Shown in pieces: positions 15,150 to 35,830 of a stretch of DNA of 40,086 nt. Source of the stretch: a virus. The DNA lies in the UHGV virus genome UHGV-0038373, one strand, 5' to 3'. Positions within the stretch are counted from its first letter, which is position 1; each line of letters starts with the position of its first letter. The notes under the pieces are model-generated. The model was not told the DNA's origin and did no database searches. It worked only from the letters and a program-made list of their open reading frames with translations. The position numbers and the translations under genes are program-made.

Positions 15150-15152
15150 TTA

Positions 15153-15183
15153 AAAACACCTCTTTTCAGAGGTGTTTTTATTT
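15153..15183 (+). terminator. rho-independent terminator
   Basis: AAAACACCTCT-TTTC-AGAGGTGTTTT plus a T run. Confidence 0.65.
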
Positions 15184-15185
15184 GG

Positions 15186-15246
15186 ATTTTAATGTACAAA
15201 CACCTTACTTTCAATCTGAAAAGCGATTAGAATCGTCCTGTGAAGC
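15186..15246 (+). repeat. imperfect direct repeat A1, about 85% identical to 16956-17016; flanks the lysis cassette
   Basis: TAATGTACAAACACCTTACTTTCAATCTGAAAAGCGATTAGAATCGTCCTGTGAAGCA compared with TAATGTATAATCACCTTACTTTTCATCTGAAACGCGCTTATAATGCTCCTATGAAACA. Contains a promoter-like TTACTT-N17-TAGAAT / TATAAT. Confidence 0.6.
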
Positions 15247-15326
15247 ACACTATTTCCCTTATTTAAATGCTATACTATAATAGTAGCTGAAAGGCGGTGA
15301 TTATAATAAGATAGGGAGATGTAGGC

Positions 15327-16920: not shown

Positions 16921-16924
16921 AACA

Positions 16925-16952
16925 AAAAGACACCCTATATAGGGTGTCTTTA
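16925..16952 (+). terminator. rho-independent terminator after endolysin
   Basis: AAAGACACCCTATATAGGGTGTCTTT plus a T run. Confidence 0.65.
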
Positions 16953-16955
16953 TTT

Positions 16956-17016
16956 GCTTTTTAATGTATAATCACCTTACTTTTCATCTGAAACGCGCTT
17001 ATAATGCTCCTATGAA
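16956..17016 (+). repeat. imperfect direct repeat A2 (pairs with 15186-15246)
   Basis: See repeat A1. Lies in the convergent region between the endolysin (+) and the NrdH-like gene (-). Confidence 0.6.
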
Positions 17017-17237
17017 ACAATGGTTTCCAAGATATTTGGTGCATATCCGCCTGCAACAAGCAATTCATTACCTTTAAACACAACAGGTAATGAACGTAAT
17101 CCACAAAGCATTAAATATTCTAAATGCTCTGGTTCTTCGTCAATGTTGCGTTCTTGATAGTTAACACCCAACTCCTGTAGTTTACGTTTGGTCATTTTGC
17201 ATGGGAAACAATTATTTTTAGTATATACTGTAATCAT
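17010..17237 (-). CDS. NrdH/glutaredoxin-like redoxin
   Basis: 75 aa, N-terminal 'VYTKNNCFPCKMTKRKL' CxxC thioredoxin-fold motif, size and layout of NrdH-type redoxins. Confidence 0.55.
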   Translation of the reverse strand: MITVYTKNNCFPCKMTKRKLQELGVNYQERNIDEEPEHLEYLMLCGLRSLPVVFKGNELLVAGGYAPNILETIVS

Positions 17238-17299
17238 TTAAATTCCTCCTATTTATTGATAGGTAAATTATAACACCTTACCTATCAATTGTCAACACT

Positions 17300-23955: not shown

Positions 23956-23984
23956 TATTGTATCATATTGACGTTTATTTGTCA
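23956..23984 (-). promoter_or_regulatory. sigma-70-like promoter (TTGACA-N17-TACAAT) for the 23404-23925 operon
   Basis: Read on the minus strand. Confidence 0.5.
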
Positions 23985-24057
23985 ACACAAAACTTTTATT
24001 TTATGATATAATATATTTATAGCAAAGGTGATTCCTCCCACCTTCAACTATCTTAGG

Positions 24058-24083
24058 TCAACTCGTATGAGTTGGCTTTTTTT
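24058..24083 (+). terminator. plus-strand-oriented terminator-like hairpin inside the minus-strand module
   Basis: CAACTCGTATGAGTTGG followed by a T7 run on the plus strand. Confidence 0.4.
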
Positions 24084-24301: not shown

Positions 24302-25022
24302 CACCAATTCTTCCTTTAGCAATATTATAATAAGTTTCATCTAATTCAATACCAATGAAATTTCTATTTGTGTTTTTACATGCAATACCTGTTGAACCAC
24401 TACCCATTGTAAAATCAAGTATAGTATCCCCTTCATTAGTATAACTCTTTACCAACCATTCTAGTAAATCAACTGGTTTCTGTGTTGGGTGTACTCTTGA
24501 CTTACCTTCAGGATAGTTATATTGTCTAACTGTCTTTGGATACCTAACACCTTTGTTTGCATGTGGTGTCATGTAGCCACTACCTGTTATCTTGGTATTA
24601 CTGATGTTTCCATCACGTTTGTATGGTGTACCTTCATCCATTTGAGGATTATAGGTTGCCTGTTTCTTATAAAACACTGATATATTCTCATGGTTTGTTA
24701 TTGGTTTTCGTTTAGCACACATAAAATCAACACCTTTTTGTTTTTCCCAAATAATCTCATATCTAAATTCATCAATATTACTCATATTTAAAAAGCTAGA
24801 AAATGGTTGTTTACCAAACAATAGTGTAGGGGTATTATCATTTCTCTTTAACTTATTTATTCTATCCCACACCTCATTAAATGGAATAATATTATCCCAT
24901 TTGAAATCCTTCTTGTTTAAAATACCATATGGTGGGTCTGTAATAATACAATCAACCTTTATACCTTCGCTGATTAATTTATCCATAATTTCTAATGCGT
25001 CACCGTTATATAATTTATTCAT
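24288..25022 (-). CDS. DNA methyltransferase, beta class (N6-adenine or N4-cytosine), orphan
   Basis: N-terminal 'MNKLYNGDALEIM' and motif IV 'DPPY' precede motif I 'LDFTMGSGSTGIAC'. No adjacent restriction endonuclease. Probable start at the internal ATG (track ORF 24288-25064). Confidence 0.8.
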   Translation of the reverse strand: MNKLYNGDALEIMDKLISEGIKVDCIITDPPYGILNKKDFKWDNIIPFNEVWDRINKLKRNDNTPTLLFGKQPFSSFLNMSNIDEFRYEIIWEKQKGVDFMCAKRKPITNHENISVFYKKQATYNPQMDEGTPYKRDGNISNTKITGSGYMTPHANKGVRYPKTVRQYNYPEGKSRVHPTQKPVDLLEWLVKSYTNEGDTILDFTMGSGSTGIACKNTNRNFIGIELDETYYNIAKGRIGDDNE

Positions 25023-25758
25023 CTTTTGCCATTCTCCGTTCTTCTCGTTTTTTAACTGAATCATAGGTGCGTTTTAACTCTGTTCCGTCAAGAGGTGGGT
25101 TGCACCCAATTTGGTTTACATATTGTGACCATACCCACACTTCTTCATGTTCTAAGCCTGTAGCAAACAACTTACCAATCATTTGCGTTATCCAGTTGTT
25201 TCGTCCTCCTTCATCACTTCCAGCGATAATATCACCTAATAGGTTTGCAGTCCATTTGCGTTCACGTTTTTTGTTTTGCTTTTGAATTGTTTTATCTGTG
25301 AAAATATCAAACCATTTTGGAGGTAGGTCTGCAATTTGTGAATTGTCAATCACTTCATATTTTACACCTTCAATTGTTGAACCCCACCCAACAACATAGC
25401 GTCCATGTGTTTGGAAGTCAACACCTTCAAGTTCCTTATGGTTTTGAATGAATTGAACATCATTATATTTTTCAGGTAGCTTGTAATACATGTGAAGTCC
25501 ACCACTTGGTGTCATAACTGTTTTAGTGTCTGGTAACTCAATATCATACTTTTCGCAAAACTCTTTAAGGTTATCAGCACCACTAACACCATTATGTGTG
25601 TCAATATCAATCACTGCAATACCTGAAATTTTACCAGTTAGGATACCATAGTTACCGCCCTCTGCAACCCATTTTTTTACTTCTGCTTTATCTTCACCAT
25701 TGAAAGCATTTGCTTTATATGGTGCTTTTCCGTTTTTTCTAAGTCTTAATAGTTCCAT
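25015..25758 (-). CDS. primase-polymerase (Prim-Pol N-terminal domain) plus PriCT_1 primase C-terminal domain
   Basis: 'GIAVIDIDTH' and 'GGLHMYY' motifs of bifunctional Prim-Pol. C-terminal 'GGRNNWITQMIGKLFATG...EEVWVW' PriCT_1-like region. Confidence 0.75.
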   Translation of the reverse strand: MELLRLRKNGKAPYKANAFNGEDKAEVKKWVAEGGNYGILTGKISGIAVIDIDTHNGVSGADNLKEFCEKYDIELPDTKTVMTPSGGLHMYYKLPEKYNDVQFIQNHKELEGVDFQTHGRYVVGWGSTIEGVKYEVIDNSQIADLPPKWFDIFTDKTIQKQNKKRERKWTANLLGDIIAGSDEGGRNNWITQMIGKLFATGLEHEEVWVWSQYVNQIGCNPPLDGTELKRTYDSVKKREERRMAKDE

Positions 25759-25782: not shown

Positions 25783-25815
25783 ACCTACTATATCACATGA
25801 TATAGTAGTTGTCAA
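25783..25815 (-). promoter_or_regulatory. promoter with palindromic operator, copy 1 (TTGACA-N17-TATAGT inside ACCTACTATA-N8-TATAGTAG)
   Basis: Minus-strand TTGACAactactatatcatgtgaTATAGT. The inverted repeat overlaps the spacer and -10. Drives the Prim-Pol operon. Confidence 0.6.
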
Positions 25816-25988: not shown

Positions 25989-27284
25989 TCATTTTAAAAT
26001 ATCCTCCATCATTTCATTAGTAAAGTCTTTTCCATTTGTTACTGTTTCAAAAATCTTTTTCTCTGTTGGTGTTTCAGGCAAAATATGGTAGTACATAGGT
26101 GTCTTAGTTTGACCATAACGGTCTGTGCGTGCCTTGGATTGTTCATAATTGATTGATTCTAAAGGCATTGAATTGTAAATTGTCACATTCGCAATAACAA
26201 AGTCATTAATACCTGTAGAGGCTGATTTGTAGTGTGCTAGCACAACTCCGTTGTCTTTACCTTTAAATGCCTTTAAGTCTTTGCTAGCACCGTTATATTG
26301 GCTATATGGGCGTTTTAACTTGTCTAATACTTGTTTCAACATTTCAACTTCTACATTGTAATTATAAAATATAACTATTCGTTCATCATTGTGTGTTTCA
26401 ATAATCTGGTTCAGTCGTTCAAATGGTTCTTTACTTACCTGTTTATTGATTCCTAACAAGAAACCATGTGACACACAACGCATTGCATTAAATAGTTTAC
26501 TACTATTATCTAATTCAATAACTTCACCGTTATCAGCTTTGTACATGCGGTTCTTTTTCAATTTAGCGTACATTGCTGGCTTCTTAGTCTTTAATACATA
26601 ATCTTCTGGGAAGTAGTCTTTATCACGCTTAAAACGAACAGCAACACTATTTATCATATCATTTAATAAATGCTCGTTCTGATACCCAACAATTTGCATG
26701 AATCTCATTGAACCCATTTGGCGCATTTGCTTAATAACAAATAGTTCTTCAAACTCTTTTTTAGGCTTGCGGAATACATTAAGCATATATAGTTGTGGAT
26801 AATAATTTTCAAGTTTTCCATTACTAACTGGTGTTGCTGTTAATAGTCTAACATACTTGGTTTTCTTTGTCAACTTCATTACAAACTTGGTAACATTAGA
26901 ACTTGTTACACCAACTTTGTGCGCTTCATCAATAATTATAAATGTGTCTTTATCAACCCACTTCAATAATTCAGTGATACGCCAAACACTTTCAAAACTG
27001 ATTGCCACTTTATCTGATTCAGCTAATAACACTTTGTTTTTCTTTGTTCCTTTATTTAGTGGTGTAATAGCAATATCCATCAATGCACCATCTTCTCCAA
27101 AGTCTGCAACCTTAGGTGCTAAACAGATAACTAATAACTTACTGCACCCAGATTGCAGGTAGGCACCTAATGCAGTGAATGTCTTACCTGTTCCAGCATC
27201 TGATAAATCGTAAGGGTGTGTATTCCATTTCTTAATACCTTCAACTTGTGTTGGTAATAATTCAATTTTTCCAATCTTAGTCAT
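25989..27284 (-). CDS. DEAH-box / SNF2-like superfamily-2 helicase
   Basis: Walker A 'DAGTGKT', DEAH box 'IIIDEAHKV', C-terminal helicase domain. Likely start MTKIGK at 27284 with a GGAGG RBS (track ORF extends to 27374). Confidence 0.75.
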   Translation of the reverse strand: MTKIGKIELLPTQVEGIKKWNTHPYDLSDAGTGKTFTALGAYLQSGCSKLLVICLAPKVADFGEDGALMDIAITPLNKGTKKNKVLLAESDKVAISFESVWRITELLKWVDKDTFIIIDEAHKVGVTSSNVTKFVMKLTKKTKYVRLLTATPVSNGKLENYYPQLYMLNVFRKPKKEFEELFVIKQMRQMGSMRFMQIVGYQNEHLLNDMINSVAVRFKRDKDYFPEDYVLKTKKPAMYAKLKKNRMYKADNGEVIELDNSSKLFNAMRCVSHGFLLGINKQVSKEPFERLNQIIETHNDERIVIFYNYNVEVEMLKQVLDKLKRPYSQYNGASKDLKAFKGKDNGVVLAHYKSASTGINDFVIANVTIYNSMPLESINYEQSKARTDRYGQTKTPMYYHILPETPTEKKIFETVTNGKDFTNEMMEDILK

Positions 27285-27666
27285 ACCACACCTCCAACTT
27301 GTCATCTGCAATATCTGGTAAATCTGGTTGTTCATAATTGAAATAAATATCATCTGCACCATAGTACACTGCACTTTCCATGTTATCCAAATAAAGTAAT
27401 AGGTCCTCTAAATCGTCAAGCGTATCTCTTAATAGTAAACCATATCCACCAGCACATCTAACCTCTTGTAAATATCTAATCTGTAATGGGTCTGGTTGGT
27501 AGTTACCTGTTTTAAGCTCTAAAGCGATATAATAGCCACTATAACACGCTTCAACATCTGCACGACCAACACGGTCATATATGCTTGCAGTATTGACGTT
27601 TACTAATGCACCTTTAGCTTTCAAATAGTCTACTACTTCTCTACTAAATTTAGATTCCTTTCCCAT
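27277..27666 (-). CDS. VRR-NUC domain nuclease
   Basis: 129 aa. 'GRADVEACYSGYYIALELKTGNYQPDPLQIRYLQEV' matches the PD-(D/E)xK VRR-NUC core. Confidence 0.65.
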   Translation of the reverse strand: MGKESKFSREVVDYLKAKGALVNVNTASIYDRVGRADVEACYSGYYIALELKTGNYQPDPLQIRYLQEVRCAGGYGLLLRDTLDDLEDLLLYLDNMESAVYYGADDIYFNYEQPDLPDIADDKLEVWYD

Positions 27667-29033: not shown

Positions 29034-29069
29034 TTCATATCCTCCCTTTAACTTATGTACTAAGTATAT

Positions 29070-29110
29070 CAGTTGGGGTTGAACTTGTCAACCCCAACTG
29101 ATTTTTATTT
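29070..29110 (+). terminator. plus-strand-oriented hairpin plus T run that overlaps a minus-strand promoter
   Basis: CAGTTGGGGTTGA-ACTTG-TCAACCCCAACTG then ATTTTTATTTT. On the minus strand the same sequence supplies TTGACA-N17-TATACT. Confidence 0.45.
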
Positions 29111-31909: not shown

Positions 31910-31930
31910 TCTTATTCCTCCTAATCTTCA

Positions 31931-32007
31931 ATATACTTGATAATGTTGTAAGTTCCCCAGATTCCAATTGTTACAAATACTAAACCAAATACTGACATGT
32001 TGTTTTC
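31931..32007 (-). CDS. 25-aa hydrophobic peptide (MSVFGLVFVTIGIWGTYNIIKYIED)
   Basis: Strong TAAGGAGGAA RBS 6 nt upstream. Sits immediately downstream of the palindromic promoter, at the position held by the 68-aa membrane protein in the paralogous cassette. Confidence 0.35.
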
Positions 32008-32026
32008 CTCCTTAGTTATCTTATAC

Positions 32027-32060
32027 ACCTACTATACCATCAGATATAGTAGGTGTCAAG
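32027..32060 (-). promoter_or_regulatory. promoter with palindromic operator, copy 2 (TTGACA-N17-TATAGT; ACCTACTATA-N8-TATAGTAGGT)
   Basis: Minus-strand TTGACAcctactatatctgatggTATAGTaggt. Perfect 10-bp inverted repeat. Confidence 0.65.
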
Positions 32061-32064
32061 TGTT

Positions 32065-32472
32065 TTATAAATAATTTTGTTTTTTTAAAAATTCAAGTGA
32101 TTTTTTAGCTTCTTTTAATTTCATTCGTTTTTCACGCAATGAGTCTTCTTGTTCTTTGATACGCATTCTTTTGTTATGCAAGTTTGTTTGTTCGTTTGCT
32201 AACTGTTTAATTTTATAGTCAATCGCTTCTAAAGTGTCTACTTTGATATTTGCTTTCAATTCAGTTAGTTCTTCTTTTTCTACTAATTCATATTGCGTTT
32301 CTGAAATGAAATAACTTGGGTGTTCTTCGTTCAAATAAATACGGCAGTCATCACTTAAAACATCATCATACGATACAATTTTATAGGTTTTACCAATTTC
32401 TAAACCGTTTCTTTCGTCCATTCCATTGAATCCAGCATATTTTGTAATTTTAGCATATTTATATTTTTTCAT
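32065..32472 (-). CDS. early protein, paralogue A (N-terminal approximately 70-aa 'GKTYKIV...YIYLN' domain plus coiled coil)
   Basis: About 50% identical to 34074-34460 over the N-terminal domain (MKKYKYAKITKY...GLEIGKTYKIV...YFISE.QYELVEKEE). Confidence 0.45.
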   Translation of the reverse strand: MKKYKYAKITKYAGFNGMDERNGLEIGKTYKIVSYDDVLSDDCRIYLNEEHPSYFISETQYELVEKEELTELKANIKVDTLEAIDYKIKQLANEQTNLHNKRMRIKEQEDSLREKRMKLKEAKKSLEFLKKQNYL

Positions 32473-32920: not shown

Positions 32921-32937
32921 TATATTTTTATTTGTTG

Positions 32938-32990
32938 TGGTTTACATTTATTATACTAAACCATGTTTGGTAATTTGTCAATACTTTTGT
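32938..32990 (-). promoter_or_regulatory. promoter region with inverted repeat TGGTTTAC-N10-(C)TAAACCA, copy 1
   Basis: Paralogous to 35380-35424. The -35 TTGACA is at 32984-32979 (minus strand) and the inverted repeat flanks the -10. Confidence 0.5.
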
Positions 32991-33213
32991 TTAAAAAGTA
33001 TTGAAGAATTTCAATATATAGTGAACCAGTTGGTGTTGTTGAAATAATCATTACCTCACGTTCAAGGTGTGGTTCAATTTTTTTCATATTCTTTGGTATA
33101 TTCTAGTTCTTTTGATTCTGTTAAAATGCAAATCTCTTTATCTGTGCCATGTTGTACTAATACCACCGTTTTATCATATTCAACTAACATTAGTAATTGT
33201 CCTAGTGTAAGGA

Positions 33214-33606
33214 TTATTCTTCCTCCTTAAATAATTCATTATATAATTCTTGAATTCCTTCACGTTTTACTTTTAACATTGCAATCTGTGCTGATATTAT
33301 ATTACTTGGCTTTCCTATCAAATTTCCTGATAAGCGATTAATATCCTTATTATATTGAACAAGTGTTCGCTGGAATACACCTCTAATCGTAGTTCGTTCA
33401 TCAATATTAACCAGCTTAAATTTTGAATCCCAAAATTCATTTAGGGTTTTTTCTAAGTTAAATAGGTTTGGTGCATACTCTGGTACCTCACCATCATTGT
33501 CTATAATACCATAGCCAAGCGCATTTTTAATAATGTCATACTCTTTGCCTTCTGTGAAAAATGGTTCTTGTGGGTCTGCTTTTGTGCATTTCATTGTGTA
33601 TTTCAT
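33214..33606 (-). CDS. early protein carrying the shared 'GKEY.I...YGIIDNDG' domain (130 aa)
   Basis: 'TEGKEYDIIKNALGYGIIDNDGEVPEY' matches the domain seen in 32065, 34074 and 34461. Confidence 0.4.
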   Translation of the reverse strand: MKYTMKCTKADPQEPFFTEGKEYDIIKNALGYGIIDNDGEVPEYAPNLFNLEKTLNEFWDSKFKLVNIDERTTIRGVFQRTLVQYNKDINRLSGNLIGKPSNIISAQIAMLKVKREGIQELYNELFKEEE

Positions 33607-33792: not shown

Positions 33793-33999
33793 TTATAGAA
33801 TATCGTCAAATACTATAGCATAGCAAAGATAAATCATTATTACAACAATTAGAATCATAGAATAGATACCATAAATAATGTATAATATAGAAACAAAAAT
33901 TACAGCTATCTTAAAAATCATTAGTGGTAAGCATAGGATAGTTAATACACTAAAAATTAACCATACTACTATCATAATACGTATAATTTTATCAATCAT
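33793..33999 (-). CDS. very hydrophobic small membrane protein (68 aa)
   Basis: Two or three TM helices. Immediately downstream of palindromic promoter copy 3. Confidence 0.35.
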   Translation of the reverse strand: MIDKIIRIMIVVWLIFSVLTILCLPLMIFKIAVIFVSILYIIYGIYSMILIVVIMIYLCYAIVFDDIL

Positions 34000-34024: not shown

Positions 34025-34059
34025 TTATCTTATGTACCTACTATACCATCAGATATAGT
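34025..34059 (-). promoter_or_regulatory. promoter with palindromic operator, copy 3 (TTGACA-N17-TATAGT; ACCTACTATA-N8-TATAGTAGGT)
   Basis: 45 bp identical to the 32027-32070 element. Confidence 0.65.
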
Positions 34060-34073
34060 AGGTGTCAAGTGTT

Positions 34074-34460
34074 TTATTCAAATTCTTTGATACTTTCAAT
34101 AAGGTTGTTAAGTTTGCGTGCCTTTTTGCTTAAGTTAATTGCCTGTTGCTCCAAGCGGTCACGCTTTTTGAATAAGTGTTCTGCTTCCGTTGTTAGTGAG
34201 TCAATTTTAGCTTGTACACTAGACTTCAAGTCTATAGTTGTTTTAAAAGTTGGTGTTTCTTCTTTTTCAACTAATTCATATTGTCTTTCTGAAATGAAAT
34301 AGTATGGATATTCATCATTTAAATAAATATAGCAATTATCAGTTAAAGGACTCTTATATTCTACAATTTTATATGTTTTACCAATTTCTAAACCAAGTCT
34401 TTTGTCAATGTTATGTGGTCCTAAATATTTTGTAATTTTAGCATATTTATATTTTTTCAT
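34074..34460 (-). CDS. early protein, paralogue B of 32065-32472
   Basis: See paralogue A. Confidence 0.45.
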   Translation of the reverse strand: MKKYKYAKITKYLGPHNIDKRLGLEIGKTYKIVEYKSPLTDNCYIYLNDEYPYYFISERQYELVEKEETPTFKTTIDLKSSVQAKIDSLTTEAEHLFKKRDRLEQQAINLSKKARKLNNLIESIKEFE

Positions 34461-34937
34461 TTATTTTTCCTCCTCTACAATTTCAAATGTTACTTGTGCT
34501 TTTTTATTATTTAAACCATTTAGGATAGTACTATAAGTGTCACGTTTATCACCGTCATTATCATAAATATAATATGGTCCAAGTTTATCAACATCTAACT
34601 TACTTACTGATTTTATAACTTTATACTCTTTCCCTGTGGTCCACCATGAAACGTTAAGCTCATCATTGCAAAGTAATCTCATTCCTTCGTATAAATCTTC
34701 TTCTGTGTATTCCATTTCTTTTTCCTCCTTAATTAGTAGTTTAATATGTTTGTTGTCTATAATATACATCCCAATGACTTCATTGTCAAGATATTTGACT
34801 AATGTTTTATAGACTGGTTCATATTGAATATATGCTCCACGTGATTCCATTTCAAAACTTAGTGGTGTCGTTGTTGCGAAAACCAGTGTGATTTTTAGGT
34901 CATTGCTGATAATGTTAATCATATCTCTTAATTTCAT
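34461..34937 (-). CDS. early protein with the C-terminal shared 'GKEYKVIK...YYIYDNDGD' domain (158 aa)
   Basis: C-terminal region aligns with the N-terminal domain of the paralogue pair. Confidence 0.4.
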   Translation of the reverse strand: MKLRDMINIISNDLKITLVFATTTPLSFEMESRGAYIQYEPVYKTLVKYLDNEVIGMYIIDNKHIKLLIKEEKEMEYTEEDLYEGMRLLCNDELNVSWWTTGKEYKVIKSVSKLDVDKLGPYYIYDNDGDKRDTYSTILNGLNNKKAQVTFEIVEEEK

Positions 34938-35359: not shown

Positions 35360-35379
35360 ATTATTTCCTCCTTATGCTG

Positions 35380-35424
35380 TGGTTTACATTTACTATAGTA
35401 AACCATGTTGATTAATTTGTCAAT
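35380..35424 (-). promoter_or_regulatory. promoter region with perfect inverted repeat TGGTTTAC-N10-GTAAACCA, copy 2
   Basis: Inverted repeat at 35380-35387 and 35398-35405. TTGACA at 35423-35418 (minus strand). Confidence 0.5.
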
Positions 35425-35515
35425 AGATTTGATTAAAAACTTTTATACTATTTTGTATCAAATTTCCTATTTGGAAATTATGGTCATTAAAACTCCCTAA
35501 ACTATGCAAAATTAT

Positions 35516-35830
35516 CATAGGTGTTCTTCATTGAAGAACAGTATTGAACCTTAGATCCACAAGGGATTGAACCAAGTGTTCTTCATTGGAGGTCTTTTTA
35601 CTACTCACATACCAGAATTATATTTTATATTATATATTTTTCTACAGATAGAGTAGAATATATGAAGAACATGAAGAACACTTATAATAAAATAAGCTAA
35701 GAATGTTGGTTTATCAACGTTTATAGGTGTTCTTCATTGGAACATTTGGTTATTTTCAATGAAGAACATGAAGAACATGAATAACATGAAGAACACCTAT
35801 AATAAAATAAGCCAAGAATATTGGTTTCAA
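35516..35830. repeat. iteron cluster: about 10 copies of ATGAAGAACA / TGTTCTTCAT in both orientations, an internal 45-bp direct repeat, and an AT-rich tract; putative origin and/or divergent control region
   Basis: Palindrome TGTTCTTCATTGAAGAACA at 35523-35541. Tandem ATGAAGAACATGAAGAACAC at 35662-35681 and 35760-35797. Two copies of GAAGAACACyTATAATAAAATAAGCyAAGAATrTTGGTTT at 35672-35712 and 35788-35829. AT-rich 35615-35650. No ORF of 60 aa or more on either strand across 35416-35910. Confidence 0.65.

Follow-up and report, generated by a model that had tools for sequence, protein, structure and literature searches.

The 40,086-nt virus genome UHGV-0038373 (the window, by which we mean the whole stretch of DNA analyzed) is placed by megablast within Efquatrovirus, as a siphophage of Enterococcus faecalis with about 150 related records; in the same search, AUEF3 shows 88% identity to it across most of 20 kb. 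The phage is strictly lytic. Structural, lysis, and packaging functions are encoded on its plus strand. The minus strand carries, between about 35360 and 17010, the genes for early functions and replication (those for DNA polymerase, helicase, primase, a primase-polymerase, and a methylase) together with many small ORFans. Within this minus-strand early arm, the promoter sequence TTGACA-N17-TATAGT is overlaid three times by a palindrome, and it is the role of this composite element that concerns us here. The initial annotation had recognized all three promoters, and exact matches are indeed found on the minus strand at 25815-25787, 32059-32031, and 34068-34040; the third copy had been placed at 34025-34059, about 10 bp away from where it actually lies, 34036-34068. 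The copies are made up as follows, types and leaders being classes of flanking sequence that are described further below:

25785..25815, minus strand: copy 1, type C, reading TTGACA-A-CTACTATA-TCATGTGA-TATAGTAG-GT, upstream of the primase-polymerase gene
32029..32059, minus strand: copy 2, type A core with leader L1
32059-32054, minus strand: -35 box of copy 2
32052-32045, minus strand: left arm of copy 2, CTACTATA
32044-32037, minus strand: center of copy 2, TCTGATGG, ending in TGG
32036-32029, minus strand: right arm of copy 2, TATAGTAG, with the -10 box TATAGT at 32036-32031
34038..34068, minus strand: copy 3, core as in copy 2 over 42 bp (34036-34077), leader type L2 (ACATAAGATAACAACAAACAAATTGGAGG)

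Each element begins 5–8 nt past the stop codon of the upstream gene and runs through an A-rich stretch, the -35 box, one variable base, the left arm, an 8-nt center, and the right arm. As the initial annotation had it, the spacer and the -10 box lie inside the inverted repeat: the left arm falls in the spacer, and the first six bases of the right arm are the -10 box itself, followed by two more arm bases. The center ends in TGN, mostly RTGN, which we take to be the extended -10 (-16) motif typical of Gram-positive promoters; the three window copies have TGG, TGG, and TGA. Downstream of the right arm, a conserved RYATAAGATAA start region leads into a strong ribosome-binding site. All three sites match a predicted sigma-A promoter at 11 of 12 consensus positions with a 17-bp spacer, and, as judged from its sequence, the whole is probably an early-promoter cassette of about 60 bp, specific to Efquatrovirus and spanning the stretch between the stop codon upstream and the next ribosome-binding site.

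The palindrome differs somewhat among the copies. The perfect 10-bp arms ACCTACTATA/TATAGTAGGT proposed for all three are present in copies 2 and 3, whereas in copy 1, which has AACTACTATA...TATAGTAGGT, the ninth pair is mismatched; the center of that copy, TCATGTGA, lengthens the palindrome on the inside, giving 11 bp about a 2-nt center. Copy 2 reaches outward instead, to CTTGACAC/GTGT-A-TAAG. Folded as RNA (in 61-nt windows around the 14 strong early promoters of the arm), copy 2 forms a 14+4 bp stem with -23.2 kcal/mol (z = -5.7), copy 3 reaches -17.4 kcal/mol (z = -5.1), and copy 1 has z = -2.85; folded as DNA, type A has 14+4 bp arms around a 4-nt loop, with z = -4.4 and -4.9 on the two strands. 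Copies 2 and 3 had been described as identical over 45 bp, and the identical run is in fact 42 bp long (32027-32068 = 34036-34077), followed by 2 mismatches and then 10 further identities.

Neither the promoters nor the palindrome is a product of chance. CTACTATA-N(4-12)-TATAGTAG occurs three times in the window (25785-25808, 32029-32052, and 34038-34061) and not once in 100 shuffles; all three occurrences have a center of exactly eight bases, and all are in fixed register with the consensus promoter. With one mismatch allowed, TTGACA-N17-TATAGT has 11 sites versus 0.57 expected, 10 of them on the minus (early) strand. About 14 strong promoters of this kind are present in the 18-kb early arm, and the palindrome is found in only three of them. 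A shorter palindrome noticed near 15270, TACTAT-A-ATAGTA, does exist at 15273-15285, around a TATAAT, and LM99 has conserved it; it is a different element, however, because its arms abut instead of standing 8 nt apart.

Further copies of the inverted repeat, which the initial annotation had suggested looking for, were readily found. A 59-nt query detected the element in Enterococcus phages only, at 176 places in 100 records, and by these matches it is confined to Efquatrovirus. In the early regions of 25 genomes, we collected 50 copies, one to four per genome, representing 43 distinct sequences; in all of them, the -35 box and all 16 arm positions are invariant. Because our first searches had required the arms, we repeated them anchored on the flanks only, leaving the arms free, and found no arm substitution in 14 Efquatrovirus hits from IMG/VR nor in 18 copies on 10 metagenome contigs; the arms are unchanged in 68 copies. 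Loosening the arm match to two mismatches brought in just one extra, unrelated site. The surroundings are far less uniform: the 8-nt center has 14 variants in the 50 copies, and two more came from the flank-anchored searches, giving at least 16, and the flanks fall into three element types (A, B, and C) and three leaders. Of the extended -10 motif in the 43 sequences, the G (column 37) is invariant and the T (column 36) is at least 90% conserved. Across the stem, 12 of 18 pairs never vary, and no real covariation is seen; the pair closing the center is paired in 40 of the 43 sequences, with U.G, U-A, G.U, and C-G all occurring.

Such constancy goes beyond what the promoter should need. Other promoters of these phages mostly have TATACT as their -10 box (99 cases), with TATATT, TACAAT, and others also in use, so sigma-A does not demand TATAGT. 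Nor do the arms show compensatory or G.U changes of the kind that we found in an unrelated promoter hairpin at 29063 (see below), which indicates a constraint on the bases themselves and not only on their pairing. The promoter set and its palindrome are thus genuine, go far back within the genus, and are subject to base-specific selection. Copy 2 is 100% identical to a feature labeled "promoter (phiSITE)" in the GenBank record of LM99, an annotation that is itself merely a prediction, and our literature search found no paper that describes the palindrome. We also considered a known RNA family or tRNA-like element and rejected the idea, as none was found; Rfam gave no match in the window at its gathering score.

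The genes around the three promoters bear on how the copies arose:

32065..32472, minus strand: 135-aa gene, phrog_3523, ending 5 nt before the -35 box of copy 2
34074..34460, minus strand: paralogue of 128 aa, 55% identical, with its end 5 nt ahead of the -35 box of copy 3; family D1, 78% DNA identity over 241 nt
31921..31998, minus strand: first gene downstream of copy 2, a 25-aa open reading frame (MSVFGLVFVTIGIWGTYNIIKYIED) whose ribosome-binding site is AAGGAGG
33793..33999, minus strand: 68-aa, very hydrophobic open reading frame, first gene downstream of copy 3
25015..25758, minus strand: first gene downstream of copy 1, encoding the primase-polymerase (Prim-Pol + PriCT_1)

The two upstream genes, of about 130 aa, are paralogous, as had been suspected (55% identity over 119 aa, E = 1e-40), and belong to a set of four phrog_3523 paralogues within 3 kb (34461-34937, 34074-34460, 33214-33606, and 32065-32472). 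The family stands beside type A copies and is confined to these phages, the relatives often having two-domain versions of about 200 aa; the product of 32065-32472 is predicted to form an SH3-like beta-barrel followed by a 60-residue helix (coiled coil). The more ambitious proposal, that gene, promoter, and downstream peptide were duplicated as a unit, holds for the gene and the promoter but not for the rest: the 25-aa and 68-aa peptides have no evident similarity in a comparison made by eye, without formal alignment, and copy 3 is chimeric between element types A and B, a type A core being joined to the L2 leader. Genes diverged to 55% identity next to an identical promoter core speak for recombination at the conserved core rather than a simple recent duplication, and a more fitting description than "duplicated cassette" is that of old paralogues followed by a promoter core that is conserved and serves as the place of cassette exchange.

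Signs of such exchange are abundant. The flanks form 7 upstream and 15 downstream clusters occurring in 22 combinations, and 6 of the 50 copies are chimeras in which the upstream half of one type is joined to the leader of another. In Ec-ZZ2 (L126:7860-7915), a type A copy is broken in the loop, at L126:7884, after the left arm and 3 nt of the center, and continues into unrelated sequence, a complete copy being present 730 bp downstream. In alignments with 25 relatives, homology ends 28 times at copy 1 (in 19 genomes) and 13 times at copy 3, the mean being 2.6 per equivalent interval. In a control for mosaic junctions, however, several gene boundaries that lack the element were as hot as copies 1 and 3, and the element is therefore one recombination site among several. 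As read from these junctions, the core demonstrably acts as a recombination linker, whatever the mechanism.

For the palindrome itself, our tentative preference, being the most economical mechanism, is an operator for a probably dimeric factor, its core doubling as a recombination linker. A dimeric protein, most likely a still unrecognized phage early protein, would read the palindrome sequence-specifically; positioned over the spacer and the -10 box, it would block RNA polymerase and could so switch off or coordinate the one to four early promoters once early proteins accumulate. The same 30–45 bp core recurs at several loci and is shared by all relatives, and for this reason it also offers a homology patch for the exchange of early-gene cassettes. 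The support for an operator is that the dyad symmetry is conserved at several promoters and overlaps core promoter elements. The overlap with spacer and -10 box is the classic position of a steric repressor, and the invariance exceeds what sigma-A or pairing alone requires. An operator for a dimeric regulator of early promoters had also been the original suggestion, and much of it stands: the early promoters are near consensus, the palindrome is nonrandom, and the constraint on it is very strong and sequence specific across about 100 related phages, just as would be expected of an operator. The part that we could not substantiate is the regulator, as no DNA-binding regulator was detectable.

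That gap is the first of several points that weigh against an operator. No helix-turn-helix, ribbon-helix-helix, or other regulator domain was found in the approximately 55 window proteins with Pfam and/or PHROGs, PDB sequence searches with three candidates were empty, and two structure models (AlphaFold/Foldseek) look unlike known DNA-binding regulators. The arms lie 16 bp apart from center to center, about 1.5 helical turns, which is awkward for a dimer bound to one face of the helix. The pair closing the center is U.G or G.U in 22 of the 43 sequences, which fits pairing in sense-strand RNA better than symmetry in DNA. Finally, 6 of the 14 strong early promoters lie in significant hairpins, and a general hairpin logic of this kind may need no operator.

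We considered several candidates for the binding protein and rejected them. The paralogue adjacent to the promoters is modeled as the SH3-like barrel with a long helix, and its best PDB matches are weak (E = 0.04); a basic 147-aa protein, the only strongly basic core early protein, yields a confident model (pTM 0.82) with no fold match. The first early gene (141 aa) has only 6 clusters and is found at 3 of 25 loci, and, lacking conservation itself, it is excluded as the reader of a site that never varies. The binder, if any, is among some 20 conserved small proteins of unknown fold. A host regulator with chromosomal operators was likewise rejected: CCTACTATA-N8-TATAGTAGG has 15 hits in 185,579 species genomes, none of them in Enterococcus, and the chance expectation is roughly 9 (596 Gb / 4^18), a chance-level result that argues against a host regulator with a regulon of its own.

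Known operators provide partial models. In phage phi29, the p4 protein binds as a dimer to 8-bp inverted arms 15 bp apart at the early promoters A2b and A2c and represses them (PMC1904284, PMC3100819). Our sites resemble those in belonging to a virulent Gram-positive phage, in having two 8-bp inverted arms around a spacer (not contacted in the case of p4), and in overlapping early promoters; on the other hand, the p4 arms, 15 bp apart, are based on A-tracts, p4 also activates a late promoter together with p6, and no p4-like protein is detectable in the window phage. With operators of the lambda, LexA, and TetR type, the element shares the dyad symmetry, the overlap with the core promoter, and the presence of identical sites at several promoters, but the 16-bp spacing of the arms is atypical for that class, and the phage is strictly lytic and without a recognizable regulator. 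The palindrome promoters are not a new kind of system or element.

The main rival to the operator, on balance unlikely, is a role in RNA like that of the PeSL cassettes of T4-type myoviruses, which combine early promoters for the host sigma factor with a stem-loop for which a terminator function has been described (Arbiol, Comeau & Krisch 2010, PMC2839356; Comeau et al. 2014, PMC4122927). Transcripts reading through from upstream would fold a 10–18 bp hairpin before the next cistron, which would dampen read-through or insulate against it, serve as a substrate for RNase III, or shield messenger RNA ends, while transcripts from the element's own promoter would lack the hairpin; the arms would be conserved since one of them is the -10 box and the other has to pair with it. 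In architecture, the element appears to match the published PeSL description almost point by point (PMC2839356): a strong early promoter for the host sigma factor, A/T-rich on its upstream side, and a stem-loop that covers the -35 and -10 boxes or lies between them, arranged as an intergenic unit from stop codon to ribosome-binding site, which is present in multiple copies in variable, ORFan-rich early regions and shows chimeras and crossovers inside the element, including its loop. The phage is, however, a Gram-positive siphophage (Efquatrovirus) of another lineage with another host, and the element would be an analogue, not a homologue; its stem is AT-rich and invariant in sequence, whereas the PeSL stem is a variable GGGG...CCCC, and there is no sense-strand U-tract, which leaves a terminator function without support in the sequence. 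A different PeSL-type composite outside the T4-like phages is AAAAGGGCTTGACAATAAGCCCTTTTT, observed in unrelated phages (IMG/VR contigs L163-L165 and L168, 18–121 kb), where a terminator-type hairpin around the -35 box precedes TATACT and a start region that again reads TGTATAAGATAA.

Part of the argument for a role in RNA comes from the other early promoters. The hairpins of the three palindrome copies are all significant (z = -5.7, -5.1, and, rounded, -2.9), and three more promoters lie in significant hairpins, over the -35 or -10 box, whose sequences are unrelated to the palindrome, with a further, marginal case bringing the number of hairpin-bearing promoters to seven:

29063..29102, minus strand: early promoter in a different hairpin (ATCAGTTGGGGTTGA-CAAGT-TCAACCCCAACTGAT), RNA fold z = -7.5 (29063-29091)
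17267..17295, minus strand: consensus promoter with its -10 box in the loop of a 13-bp hairpin, z = -3.5
23957..23985, minus strand: promoter with a hairpin over its -35 box, z = -3.2
35395..35423, minus strand: left-most early promoter, GGTTTAC-N10-GTAAACC around the -10 box, family D5; the marginal case, z = -1.8

In relatives (L123-L145), the GGGGTTGA-CAAGT-TCAACCCC stem at 29063 shows the series T-A, T.G, and C-G and never C/A, which points to selection for pairing, the wobble state favoring the sense strand; in one relative, the loop is inverted and the -35 box destroyed, and the hairpin is kept. The hairpin at 29063 seems to have been selected independently of the promoter. The palindrome fits this pattern in that its closing pair is paired in 40 of 43 sequences, but there is not a single compensatory or wobble change in the 8 stem pairs of 68 copies, and TATAGT is never swapped, together with a matching left arm, for the equally functional TATACT or TATAAT. 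Intrinsic termination on the sense strand was rejected, since the hairpin is followed by GUAUAAGAUAAC or ACAUAAGAUAAC and by no U-tract, and only the plus strand of type A scores as a terminator. The processing alternative has its precedents in T7 and SP82, where RNase III cuts hairpins between early genes. Like those, the palindrome is intercistronic, conserved in sequence, and part of the early polycistronic transcripts of a lytic phage; unlike it, they are not built into promoters, and the stems here are shorter, types B and C having only 10–12 bp, which is little for RNase III.

The marginal promoter at 35395-35423 has a paralogous copy at 32953-32981. The two lie in a 79-nt repeat (32933-33011 and 35375-35453, 81% identical) that forms a second palindrome family, kept in relatives and weak as a hairpin, and that may represent a second operator type.

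Improbable, in our judgment, is the explanation under which the element is a promoter only: a strong cassette that was spread by recombination and kept uniform by gene conversion, with a palindrome that has no reader. The GenBank records of relatives give the sites simply as predicted promoters, no binder was found, and homogenization is plausible at a core that is a demonstrated recombination junction. Conversion would nevertheless have to leave the arms constant while the center has at least 16 variants and the flanks three types, that is, its tracts would need to skip the middle every time; and the left arm sits in the spacer, which in sigma-A promoters is normally free to vary.

Similarly improbable is a role of the structure in DNA, where a cruciform or hairpin, formed in supercoiled or transiently single-stranded DNA, would sequester the -10 box and make the promoter sensitive to topology, or be a structure-specific site for recombination or replication proteins. 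Several observations speak for it. Variants of the center form four exact reverse-complement pairs (TCTGATGG/CCATCAGA, TCATGTGA/TCACATGA, CCATGTGA/TCACATGG, and TCCTATGA/TCATAGGA) within the same locus type, and at least four such pairs are expected with P of about 1e-4 under a null that keeps the column composition; the center has thus been inverted repeatedly between the arms, which implies repeated intrastrand pairing or arm-to-arm exchange in DNA. The loop at 29063 has flipped as well, the copy in Ec-ZZ2 is broken exactly in the loop, and the 14+4 bp arms of type A fold significantly as DNA (z = -4.4 / -4.9). The phage even has an endonuclease-family protein (27277-27666, phrog_93 "endonuclease"), which we would interpret from its sequence as a resolvase-like nuclease of the PD-(D/E)xK type. 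Template switching at quasi-palindromes produces loop flips, however, and these are thus an expected mutational by-product of inverted repeats and no proof of function; with AT-rich arms of 8–10 bp, types B and C would be borderline cases for extruding a cruciform in vivo, and a purely structural role leaves the base-by-base invariance unexplained.

Inverted repeats that leave the duplex at the core of a promoter do have precedents. Horwitz and Loeb (1988) reportedly engineered cruciform promoters. Phage N4 provides a natural case, its virion RNA polymerase promoters being hairpin dependent and read by the phage's own RNA polymerase (PMC4496689). The element shares with both an inverted repeat at the promoter core that is able to leave the duplex, but it belongs to a 40-kb siphophage without a phage RNA polymerase, and its promoter is consensus sigma-A in duplex form. 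That a dedicated phage factor reads the palindrome as a hairpin or cruciform and thereby targets the exchange of cassettes, in the manner of integron-like, site-directed shuffling built into the early promoters of Gram-positive siphophages, with promoter silencing as a secondary effect of the binding, seems to us very improbable.

We give hardly any credence to the palindrome being an antisense terminator, in which the plus strand of type A, an 18-bp stem followed by UGUUUUAU, would stop transcripts opposing the early genes: a scan does flag 32025-32056 and 34034-34065 on the plus strand, and canonical plus-strand terminators are found inside the minus-strand operons at 29068-29102 and 24055-24078, but the T-run merely complements the A-rich upstream element of the promoter, types B and C lack it, and terminator-like sites number 9 versus 7.2 in shuffles. 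The plus-strand hairpin with a T-run at 24055-24078 makes one ask, in its own right, whether the early arm is also transcribed in antisense. An antisense promoter from the mirrored -10 box was rejected as the conserved feature, since no more than about 40% of copies have TGn on the opposite strand and a good -35 box is lacking. The antisense-terminator, promoter-only, and DNA-structure explanations together take up most of the probability that the operator and the RNA role leave.

The element has practical value. Of the Enterococcus phages, efquatroviruses belong to those that are isolated most frequently for therapy. A strictly conserved site of 24–28 bp on a defined subset of early promoters could be used as bait for the genus's first regulator, and the palindrome would define a set of coregulated genes, making it a practical entry to gene regulation in Efquatrovirus. 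The core is also a natural and tolerated junction for swaps of early genes, which aids phage engineering and helps to explain the mosaicism of the group. Should the hairpin logic prove general, the PeSL idea would extend from T4-like phages of Gram-negative hosts to small Gram-positive siphophages.

Some further features of the window were observed along the way. Megablast matches to part of 20000-40086 include 37 Staphylococcus phage records. The lysis cassette is flanked by a 96-nt direct repeat (15152-15247 and 16924-17019, 76% identical), each copy of which starts with a terminator hairpin followed by about 60 conserved nucleotides; the hairpin stems of the two copies differ in sequence with their pairing kept, and LM99 carries the same duplication. 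Lastly, the divergent intergenic region between the early and late genes contains, at 35522-35795 (274 bp), ten copies of ATGAAGAACA, seven on the plus and three on the minus strand, some in tandem and some paired as TGTTCTTCA-T-TGAAGAACA palindromes. The entire window has 18 matches to ATGAAGAACA versus 5.9 expected, and the array looks like replication-origin iterons or an array of regulator sites.

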